Assembly: GCA_964016885.1 (NCBI GenBank)
Contig: OZ024748.1
Coordinates: 49,538,001 to 49,602,000 of the forward strand
Source of the DNA: Eledone cirrhosa
Taxonomy: Eukaryota
Reading direction: 5' to 3'
Length of the DNA stretch: 64,000 nt
In this document: positions 11,330 through 15,294 of the stretch, piece after piece
How positions within the stretch are numbered: the stretch's first letter is position 1
Layout: every line of letters starts with the position of its first letter
Made by a program: the position numbers and the translations under genes
The notes under the pieces: model-generated
What the model was told of the DNA's origin: nothing
The model's input: only the letters and a program-made list of their open reading frames with translations
The model's database searches: none

Positions 11330-14300
11330 GATGGCTGCAAACTCTGCCAAGAGTATTGCAATCGCTTGTCAGATTCAGATGGGTGACGCTCGGATATGGC
11401 TTTTCAAGCCTGCTAGAGACTTGCACTCCTTCATTCACTGACGACAACTATAGATCTCCTTGGCTTGAGGTCTTGCATTAACATCAGGTTGCCCGTTAAC
11501 CCTCACAACACCGTGGAGATCATAATTTACTGGTTCTCTTTGAACATGGCTGCGACTGTGGCTCCCGAGACCAGATTTGCTCAAGCAAATTTTTCCACAC
11601 TCAAGGCACTTCAATTATATGGAGACACCGATCTTTTCGAGAGATACACCAGGGCATTGCTTACGAACATCCCGTTTGATCTTCTCCTGCTCTATGCGTC
11701 TGTCCTCAAAATTATGGACCCCATCATTCACCATTCCACGCCAAGTTTCTCTTTCAAGAGCTTCTATCTCCCAGTCAGCCATCATCAAACCAATTTTTTT
11801 CAATGAGTCCTTTACACAATCCTTGAATCGGAGCCTTGGCTTGTGAGGTGATCTCTTAGCCTCACAAAGCTCGCCATACAAGAGTTGCTTTGGGATTCGA
11901 TCATCCTCCATTCTGCAGAGGTGTCCGGGCCATCGCAAACGCTGTTAGTGGATGATGCTCTCAATGCTCCGACACTCACTTCTCTCAAGGACCTCAATAT
12001 TACTCACATGCATCTGCCACTTGATACCGAGCATATTTCTGAGACACTGCTGGTGAAACCGTTCCAGTCTGTGGATATGCCGTTTGTAGGCCACCCATGT
12101 CTCACACGCATACAGCAAAGCTGACAGTACAGATGCAGCATACACTCTCACCTTGGTCCTCATTGTGATTCCTCACCTGCACCAAAGACGGTCGTTGAGT
12201 CTTCTAAATGACGCACTTGCCTTACTAACACGTAGACCAACTTCTGCATCCAGAGAGCAGGCCACACTCAGAGTACTCCCCAAATACACAAATGTGTCAG
12301 CAGCCTTCAGCTTTTGACCGTATACGTATATGGAGGGTCCATTGAAAACTTTATCCGGAGCATGTTGGTACATGACGACAGTCTTCTTCAGACTGATTGT
12401 CAGCCCCAAAGCACTGCACGCATTGAAAAAAGAATCCATAAGGTGTTGCATGTCACTCTGAGAGTGTGCAAAGAAATCACAATCATCTGCATATAAAAAT
12501 TCTCTGATCAAGTTACTCAGTACCTTAGTGTTGGCAGTGAGACGCCTAAGGTTAAACAGCTTGCCGGAAGTGCTATATCTGAGATAGATACCGTGTTGAC
12601 AATCCCCGGAGGCCATGAAGAACACCATTGCGAAATACAAGGCAAACAAAGTTGGTGCAGGTATATATACCCTGCTTCACACCATTTTCAAACGAGATTG
12701 GCTCAGACAGTTTACCTCCAACATTTACCCATGCCTGCATGTCATCGTGGAAGAGTTTCAGAATGTTCACAAACTTTTCAGGACAGCCCAATCTTTCTAA
12801 AATAACCCACAAAGCCTTCCGATTAATGGTGTCAAATGCCTTGGTCAGATCGACAAAAACTTGGAATAAGTCCATGCGCTGCTCAATGCAACTCTTGAAG
12901 TTGTTTGGCCGAGAAGATCTTGTCAACAGTGCCTCTGCCATTCCTAAAGCCACATTGGGACTCAGGAAGAACCTCAACAGCAATGTGCTGTATCAATCTG
13001 TCCAACAAAATCCCGCACAAGATCTTCCCAGCCACAGATAGCAGCGAGATACCTCTGTAGTTGCCACAGTAATCTTTGGCTCCTTTTCTTTTGTAAAGTA
13101 CCACCATCAATGCATCTTTCCAGTCATGTGGCACATCTTCTTCATTCCAAACACGCACAAAGAGATCAGTGAGGCGGTTTAAGAAGTTATCACTAACACA
13201 CTTGAAAATCTCGGCACCCAGTCCATCCATTCCAGGTGACTTGCCGCTGTTTAATTTGGCAATGGCCTTCGCCACCTCATCAAATGAAGGAGGATCAGCT
13301 ATTTCCAGCTTTGTCGGTCTGGATGAACTCATCATCAATTTCTGATGGTCTATTGAGAAGCTCATCAAAGTGGTCATGCCACCTGATCAGGATTTCCTTC
13401 GGATCTCTGAGCAATTCCTTGCCGTCCCTGGAGCGAAGTGGTGATATTTGTGAACCGGTCGAACCATACACCTCCCTGAGCAGACTGTATAGGAGCTTTG
13501 TATCATATCTATCCTGGCCTTCTGGATTTCATCAGCCTTTTGGCTCCACCAGGTATCCTGCATGGCTCTCAATCGATGTTGCACACGTGCCTTGATCTGT
13601 CTGAAGGTCCGGTCACTCCTGTCAGAACGTGTATCACACAACAATGATGTCAGCACTTTTTGTTTCTCTTCAAGCAAGGTCTGGATCACTGCATCATTTT
13701 CATCGAACGAGTCTTTATGCTTTCTATTGGTATGACCCAAAACTCCAGCACTAACATCATAGACGGTTTTCTTCAATGATTCCCAGGTGTTTTCACATTC
13801 CATGAACTCAAGGGACTTCGACAGCTCAGCTTTGACTTTCTCTGTTTTCAGACGAGCCACGTTTAGTTGTTTTGGAAGTGCAACCTTCTTCCCCCTTACT
13901 TTGGGTTTCACAACAAATTGAAACTTGGCGTGCACCAGACGATGATCAGTCCAACATTCCGTACCTCGTTATACACGAACCAATGTGATATCCCTGATAT
14001 CACGTTTCCTCGTTAAAACAAAGTCAATAAGGTGCCACTTCTTGGAACCTGGATGCATCCAAGTTGTCTTATATTTGTCTTTCTGCTGAAAGAGTGTGTT
14101 CCCCAAAACAAGATCCATCACAGTGCACATTTGCAACAGAAGTAGGCCATTGTTATTGCACTTACCTACTCCATGCCTGCCCATCACAGTCCAAGCTTCC
14201 CAGTCATTATCAACACGTGTATTAAAATCACCAAGGATGACAATCTTGTCTGTATAAGGTATACCATGGATGACCTCTCTCAAAGACATGTAGCAACTTA

Positions 14301-15294
14301 GTTTTTCATCATCACTGGCACACATAGTAGGAGCGTACACACTGACCAGAGTCACAAAGCGGTTTTGAATCAGAGGGACTCTCATGGACATTACACGATC
14401 ATTGAATCCACAAGGAAGATTTTCCAGCTTTGAGAGGATTCCATTCCTGACAGCAAATGCGACCCCTGCTTCTCTCCTACAACCAGCTGCTCCACCATTC
14501 CAATAGAAGGTATATCCTCCCTCCTGTTCTGTGAATTGACCCTCACCTGCCAATCTCGTTTCTGAAAGAGCAGCGATGTCCATGCTATAGCGATTGAGTT
14601 CCCTCGACACCAAAGCAGATCTTCTTTCAGGGCGAGTTTCACTGGTCCGGGAATCAAGTAAAGTTCTTACATTCCAGCATCCAATATTCAGAGGTTTCAA
14701 CCTCCTTGCAGTTGTAGGATGACGACCGGGCACACGCTGCGGTGCCATGAGACACCTGCCGGGCCAGACCCCTTCACAATAAGTTCCAGAGCCCTTACTG
14801 CCATTGACTTCAAGGTTATCATCTGTCATCATAGAGTTTGGTGCACTTTTAGGGTACGGCCAGCCACACGAACCTGTAACAGATCCTGAACAAGCAATGC
14901 CTGTGCTTTGAAGGATTTTAAAGTGGGGAAATGCCTTGCACGCGACCAATCCCACTCTGTGAGCATCGAAAACACTACCCGAAAAGGAGAACTGGTCAAC
15001 ATCCGAAGCCGCTGGATTTTTTTCAGAGTTTCCCTCTCCTAGAAAGGTGTTGTGAAACAACTGGGGGCCTTTCACTCCCAGGTGAGAAAACAAAAAAAAA
15101 AAGTACTATTTGGATGGCCGTTGACTCTGCTGAGTCACTCCGCCCTTTGCCGGGTCTTGTATTTCATCCCGCAGGGTGTCCAAATATCAGCCTCTTCACC
15201 AAGCAAGCTTGGTGGAGTTGCCGGTTTAGTCAATGACGACCCGACCATGAGACAGGTACTACTGAGTTACATGTTACCAGTAGCACTCGAGAGC
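11330..15294 (-). mobile_element. Near full-length RTE-clade LINE (APE endonuclease + reverse transcriptase + C-terminal Zn-finger-like motifs), frameshifted
   Basis: ORF pieces 13969-15093 (IGCWNVRTL, DIAALSETR, VSVYAPT, ILGDFN, WHLIDFVL), 12883-13377 (GKSPGMDG, NYRGISLLS, PESQCGFR), 12573-12983 (FVDLTKAFDT, GVKQG), 12173-12649 (FLYADD) and 11615-12163 (LLYACETW, RIPKQLLYGEL). (CATA)n on both sides. Confidence 0.95.

Follow-up and report, generated by a model that had tools for sequence, protein, structure and literature searches.

A LINE in the window, the 64,000-nucleotide stretch of DNA analyzed here, appears, together with a sister family and short derivatives, to insert into existing (TATG)n or (TA)n tracts in one orientation and one phase, with synthesis primed from a nick. 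We put the probability of this reading at about 70%. The repeat preference is strong and polarized, and it occurs in an RTE-like lineage. TATG-type repeats were found at both ends of the LINE (family F1), of its internal-deletion derivative (F1d), of the short element F3, and of all seven window copies of the non-autonomous element F2, six of which are 5' truncated (Table 1). The host genome, that of an animal and, judging by its repeat landscape, probably a cephalopod, comprises 3.0 Gb.

Anatomy and classification of the lineage

Comparison with other copies indicated that the window LINE is short of its true 5' end by about 8 to 10 nt. Both of its ends have TATG on the sense strand, and the hairpin-loop motif of its endonuclease, at about position 14064, contains Gly, versus Arg in most relatives. 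For a 280-bp neighbor, a SINE ending in a CATA tail was considered and rejected: the segment has CATA on both sides and represents the 3' terminus of an RLE-type LINE. A genome search returned about 1,000 candidates for this Dong/R4-like LINE, whose host repeat reads (CATA)n along the sense strand of the LINE and borders several truncated copies on either side. The RTE-like lineage and the Dong-like LINE represent two clades that occupy one repeat on opposite strands. The window also holds a 90-bp tandem array (25.6 copies, 98% match; 27422-29724) and three tandem copies of a 198-bp tRNA-like SINE (23939-24545).

Table 1. Elements, coding regions and repeats located in the window
Feature	Positions	Strand	Remarks
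F1 LINE, RTE-like, near full length	11330..15294	-	Single ORF with stops and frameshifts
APE-type endonuclease coding region of F1 LINE	13972..14832	-	PF03372, E 1e-8
Reverse transcriptase of F1 LINE	12176..13386	-	PF00078, three broken frames
Two C-terminal C2H2 zinc-finger motifs of F1 LINE	11385..11608	-	Second motif damaged in window copy
Conserved RTE 5'-UTR domain of F1 LINE	15023..15042	-	Match to AviRTE / Ceph-SINE domain (PMC5786205 supplement)
Target repeat, LINE 3' end	11286..11329	.	11 CATA/CA units; sense strand TATG/TG
Target repeat, LINE 5' end	15295..15387	.	23 CATA units; sense strand (TATG)23
3' fragment of RLE-type (Dong/R4-like) LINE	11012..11286	+	Same repeat as F1 LINE, opposite strand, unrelated
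F1d, internal-deletion derivative of LINE	17976..18493	+	5' about 480 nt joined to last 46 nt
F2, full length, 609 bp, non-autonomous	61494..62102	+	RTE 5' UTR and zinc-finger-coding 3' end
F2 copy truncated at position 27	37491..38069	+	Readable duplication; mixed/interrupted tract
F2 copy truncated at position 42	17219..17786	+	
F2 copy truncated at position 279	10555..10884	-	
F2 copy truncated at position 395	9375..9589	-	
F2 copy truncated at position 225	6355..6739	+	
F2 copy truncated at position 151	3369..3826	+	12-bp duplication, TA-rich tract; mixed/interrupted tract
F3, short derivative of young intact sister LINE F3L	8888..9250	-	

Four families have a similar 3' end: F1, F1d, F2, and F3 with its parent F3L. 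Pairwise identity was 95.4% over the last 500 bp for F1, 97.9% for F2, and 99.0% for the 5.4-kb F3L (20 copies). An intact F3L copy encodes one ORF of 1181 aa with APE, RT and three C2H2 fingers. No other sense ORF longer than 105 aa, and no ORF1, was present in this 5.4-kb copy. A structure model (pLDDT 73, pTM 0.54) lends support to no more than three terminal finger folds. The F3L 5' UTR (L294:3827-5400) is 1.6 kb long, exceeding that of its relatives, and is rich in internal simple repeats; 5' inversions were observed in 4 of 32 F3L copies. Rfam revealed no ribozyme at the F2 5' end, its matches being repeat artefacts. Extrapolation from eighteen 3'-end motifs in 990 kb gave about 54,000 lineage copies genome-wide. 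F2 pieces at least 99% identical were also found in sequencing runs labelled as three other organisms (5 differences in 609 in one run), which may reflect close relatives, horizontal transfer or contamination.

We class the element as RTE-like on its single ORF, bipartite derivatives and 5'-UTR stretch. The intact F3L combines an N-terminal APE and an RT in a single ORF, and the window copy has the same order. F1d, F2 and F3 each join a 5' part to a 3' part of a LINE, a construction reported only for RTE, Ingi, Vingi and R2 (PMC5786205). Compared by eye, 21 nt of F2 are identical to the Ceph-SINE line of the supplement to that paper and agree with the AviRTE line at 20 of 21 positions; F1 carries a variant of this stretch. 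A tandem-repeat tail of its own between the duplications, usual for RTE, was not found at the 3' end, which is a variant feature and no argument for another clade. The R1 clade (Waldo) and the Tx1 clade (Kibi, Koshi) have two ORFs with a gag-like ORF1, an arrangement that the intact F3L copy does not share. In a tree of 82 sequences, which used 80 of 120 listed relatives and contained no named RTE reference elements, F1 and F3L branched together with two database proteins (support of 1.0). Matches in the PDB were only distant ones to L1 and R2, and a PDB search with the endonuclease alone gave none. The protein cluster look-up yielded useful names for two amphioxus proteins only, and a metagenome scan gave seven loci of just 22 to 36% identity.

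Flanking repeats, polarity and phase

The association was evaluated over fetched loci, after removal of window overlaps, duplicates and flanks shorter than 24 nt, by scoring alternating purine-pyrimidine tracts of at least 14 nt in the 24-nt flank. For F2, such a tract preceded 36 of the 43 full-length copies and 37 of the 47 truncated ones and followed 71 of 89, compared with 8.5% of random 24-mers. The co-resident tRNA-like SINE, used as a control, gave 2/66, 0/64 and 9/132, respectively. The evenly spaced sample alone passed this strict test in 4/5 full-length and 1/5 truncated F2 copies; of the four truncated misses, one is at an inversion joint, one at a tandem joint, and two have their tract 9 to 14 nt off. 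F3L had a tract at 28 of 32 5' ends overall (7/7 full-length, 17/21 truncated and 4/4 inverted) and at 27 of 30 3' ends. The values for F1 were 20/34 for full-length copies, 11/22 for truncated copies and 25/30 at the 3' side. The first of these is an undercount because the reference lacked the first bases, and many of the misses among the truncated copies were internal deletions or inversions. The control SINE often showed (ATT)n-like sequence at both ends and may have a weak preference of its own. Another repeat family, of unassigned class and with an internal inverted repeat (L063:5801-6005; 39 sample matches), had (TA)n flanks in most of the copies shown.

Genome-wide, 10,129 exact F2 5' ends were tallied, of which 7,305 (72%; 5,864 plus 1,441) had (TR)6 located 5 to 16 nt upstream, against a background of 4.4%. 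(TATG)3 occurred in sense orientation at 2,909 ends (28.7%) and in antisense orientation at 7 (0.07%), the background being 0.058%. A LINE has been regarded as target specific if one sequence type occupies more than 20% of its flanks (PMC4494074), and this proportion was exceeded by F2 with both (TR)6 and pure (TATG)3 as well as by F3L 5' ends. Flanks genome-wide consisted of (TATG)n, (TA)n and mixtures of the two, and for F1 also of (TG)n. Raw short reads from another sample contained (TATG)n as a loose end behind F2; they show the same 3' flank, and it is therefore no artefact of assembly. The original prediction that TATG-type repeats lie at both ends, even of truncated copies, was borne out by these flank counts, and the genome-wide 5'-flank tally, set beforehand as a check and run here on exact F2 5' ends, came out in its favor. 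Its statement that TATG is always on the sense strand held for polarity and was too narrow for repeat type, given the (TA)n, mixed and (TG)n flanks.

Broad insertion followed by survival of copies in repeat-rich regions, or by later growth of repeats around them, is very improbable. Copies do cluster in repeat-rich sampled stretches, and slippage varies tract length among paralogs, but a polarity of 415:1 and a base-exact phase are beyond the reach of such processes. The pattern was, moreover, clearest in the youngest family, and the control SINE in the same genome lacked such flanks.

The 3' flank of 134 F2 copies read (ATRT)n in fixed phase, with A in 132, T in 133, G or A in 84 and 48, and T in 132 copies at the first four positions, and A in 120 to 122 copies at positions +5, +9 and +13. 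The Tn-TA signature of RTE elements was present in part. T preceded the A at +1 in the inspected readable cases; in the upstream region, where that signature has a stretch of T some 10 nt before the cut, 48/69 and 43/61 copies had alternating repeat. In 26 of 69 full-length and 27 of 61 truncated copies, (TATG)3 preceded the duplication, compared with 0.8% at T|ATRT sites.

These data bear on a rival explanation, that no real microsatellite targeting takes place and TA repeats merely supply most of the sites for ordinary RTE cutting at TpA. Inside (RT)6 tracts lie 55% of the T|ATRT sites of the genome and 72% of its T|ATRTAT sites, close to the 78% seen for F2, and therefore much of the association needs just a preference of 5 to 7 bases. 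Bov-B duplications likewise begin with A after T (PMC13295347), and TA and TG tracts are widely used by F1. Ordinary TpA cutting nevertheless predicts (ATGT)3 downstream at 0.4% of T|ATRT or 3.4% of T|ATGT sites, whereas it followed 37% of the 134 F2 ends. Starts with ATGT versus ATAT numbered 82:46 for F2 and 20:13 for F3, against a genomic availability of 7,444:55,081. In 33 mixed tracts, G recurred in a 4-base phase (20, 17, 10 and 15 versus 6, 2 and 5), whereas the genomic null was flat. We consider this explanation unlikely: a short motif accounts for landing in TA repeats but not for the excess of TATG, for which a TATG motif of 9 to 13 bases is needed. F1 is looser in target choice than its younger relatives. 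Its 3' flanks started with ATAT in 17 and with ATGT in 6 of 25 cases, and inspection by eye of 82 listed 5' ends gave 7 pure TATG tracts, 7 pure TG tracts and about 10 ends with no tract.

Target versus tail

Several observations concern whether the repeat was present before insertion. Within copies, the TATG share of the 5' flank correlated with that of the 3' flank (rho of 0.66, n = 79). Duplications were readable in 19 of 89 copies, versus 8 expected from shuffled pairs, and the clear ones measured 11 to 15 bp. They began at the first base past the element end in 13 of the 19 cases, and extra bases at the 3' joint amounted to at most one ACC/ATC triplet. Microhomology of at least 2 nt with the repeat was found at the 5' joint of 22 of 45 truncated copies, compared with 19% in simulation (p of 2e-5).

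Paralogous sites were available in a tandem array (C1:136.41-136.49 Mb) with a unit of 3.7 to 5 kb, where F2 occurs 27 times and F3L once, in full length, and (TATG)n length differs among units. At the first site, four units were empty and carried (TATG)20, 15, 13 and 15, and a fifth held 13 repeats, a truncated F2 copy and about 12 further repeats; three units of another subtype were left out as not comparable. The inserted F2 showed no differences over 411 positions from a reference copy on another contig, compared with 6 to 16 for the 26 other array copies. As the insertion matches an outside copy, unlike the copies of the array, it was more probably gained by this unit than lost from the others; slippage between the bordering repeats could in principle have removed an insertion precisely. 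At the second site, a full F3L was present in one unit, and 13 units with the same downstream flank held 4 to 23 repeats. The two filled sites contained about 25 to 26 repeat units, versus maxima of 20 and 23 in empty ones, lengths that allow some repeat gain past the duplication. A flank-against-flank search for further empty paralogs mainly recovered junctions between elements, plus a single weak pair (86% identity) with (AT)5 at the empty site. Contigs from four other-sample runs at one filled site included neither a joint across it nor a spanning piece.

One daughter copy could be compared with its donor. A copy on C17 (41.79 Mb) was identical over 1269 of 1269 positions to a filled array unit (C1:136.458 Mb). 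It stops at the F2 end. The 15 bp duplicated on either side come from the mixed tract at its own site, and the (ATGT)12 of the donor is absent. The exported 1,269-bp composite, in which a 400-bp spacer accompanies two F2 pieces, is a recent export of a multi-part RNA from the array.

Alternatively, read-through RNA ending in (AUGU)n could pair with the nicked CATA strand and so select or lengthen TATG tracts. Such a tail would give both the polarity and the 4-base phase without new protein specificity, and tail-target pairing has been proposed for RTE (PMC6007223). A repeat at the 3' side only was seen in 18 copies and at the 5' side only in 6, and filled array sites slightly exceed empty ones in length, both as a tail would have it. 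The readable duplications are harder to reconcile with it, as they begin at offset 0 and frequently depart from the repeat after 2 to 7 bases. Repeat types at the two ends also match, the combination of TA at the 5' and TATG at the 3' side (2 copies) being no more frequent than the reverse (3 copies), and the daughter copy did not receive the repeat of its donor. We regard pairing through a long tail as improbable, even more so than cutting at TpA alone. The repeat is a pre-existing target, with no long tail where the junction is readable; in pure repeats, a copied tail is indistinguishable from target. Of the original reading, directed insertion into existing repeats gained support, with a polarity stronger than claimed; a long (TATG)n tail did not. 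The prediction would have failed on empty sites lacking the repeat, and the four paralogous empty sites hold (TATG)13-20.

Proposed insertion model, known systems and microsatellite load

We suggest that, on the CATA/TA strand, the endonuclease cuts at AT|A, the TpA step at which Bov-B cuts too (PMC13295347), since duplications start with AT after T. The freed AT end would prime reverse transcription at the very 3' end of the element, probably by two-base pairing of the AT primer with RNA ending in CAU. Polarity may follow from the same step, as the TpA of the TATG strand would offer GT|A only and leave a GT end. Two violations of the AT rule were encountered, once each in 134 F2 copies. The preference of the younger families for TATG over TA, spanning at least 12 to 15 bp, would lie in the protein rather than in long RNA-DNA pairing; a protein basis is the likelier one because readable duplications so often break the repeat early. 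Candidate readers are the altered endonuclease hairpin and the C-terminal C2H2 fingers. With the motif assigned by alignment, the hairpin contains Gly or Ala in the F1/F3L branch and Arg in 110 of 120 relatives; two or three C2H2 fingers also occur in 58 of 120 relatives. The hairpin shapes target choice in L1, R1Bm and TRAS1 (PMC1950540, PMC6007223). Each insertion would split a tract and duplicate a few units, so that copies stack in tandem with a small net gain of repeat.

The closest known systems are the Tn-TA RTEs (Bov-B, Sauria SINE and plant RTE; PMC6007223, PMC13295347), which resemble the present lineage in their single APE and RT ORF, A-after-T duplications, short microhomology at the 3' joint and short derivatives. 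They insert, by contrast, into ordinary DNA that has a stretch of T about 10 nt before the site, and they have their own repeat tail between the duplications, whereas the window lineage has the repeat on both sides, as target, in fixed polarity. RTE-2_OV of Octopus vulgaris is similar in its EN, RT, C2H2 finger, 5' UTR of about 600 nt and 3'-UTR microsatellite; one finger is drawn for it (PMC9115989). F1d, F2 and F3 combine the LINE 5' UTR with its 3' end as do Bov-A and RTESINE (PMC5786205), and compared with these their build is ordinary and only their target unusual.

APE-type LINEs that insert into microsatellites are known from R1, namely Waldo (ACAY) and Mino (AC), and from Tx1, namely Kibi and Koshi (TC, TTC), and the ACAY of Waldo covers the same CATA/TATG repeat (PMC3812793, PMC4494074). 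The window lineage differs from them in its clade, its RTE 5'-UTR domain, the lack of an ORF1 and a preference relaxed to (ATRT)n. Dong, of the R4 clade, is likewise a microsatellite-resident LINE, found in TAA repeats (PMC3812793). It differs from the F1 lineage in its RLE endonuclease, and the local Dong-like element is on the opposite strand and unrelated.

According to published statements, RTE sites do not appear sequence specific (PMC2887409), site-specific APE-type LINEs are confined to the Tx1 and R1 clades (PMC6007223), and RTE-1 gene writers are listed among those that integrate at random (PMC13708176, a 2026 review). The literature searched, outside subscription journals and Repbase Reports, yielded no report of an RTE that targets microsatellites. 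We see an even chance that real specificity has arisen in a third clade of APE elements besides R1 and Tx1, in the form of an RTE sub-branch with a changed hairpin and two to three C2H2 fingers that reads (TATG)n by strand and phase, is probably active, and has its repeat in common with a Dong-like element. With an RTE family that is young, has one intact ORF and uses a polarized target, the origin of APE specificity would become testable, be it hairpin, fingers or RNA pairing. The usual view of repeats beside RTE elements as tails is reversed here.

RTE targeting does not account for the microsatellite load of the genome. In 99 evenly spaced 10-kb stretches, alternating tracts of at least 16 bp made up 8.4% of bases, (TA)6 or longer 4.6%, and (TATG)3 or longer 0.2%. 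Alternating tracts amount to about 250 Mb and (TATG)3+ runs to about 6 Mb, and duplications add 0.65 to 0.8 Mb (about 54,000 copies with 12 to 15 bp each), equal to about 0.3% of the alternating tracts and no more than roughly a tenth of pure TATG. The idea that each insertion adds more repeat therefore stands for a duplication of 11 to 15 bp and for nothing longer, and feedback as a cause of the load fails on these quantities. Among 22 (TATG)4+ tracts in the sample, assessed by eye, 6 touch the RTE-like lineage and 3 the Dong-like element.
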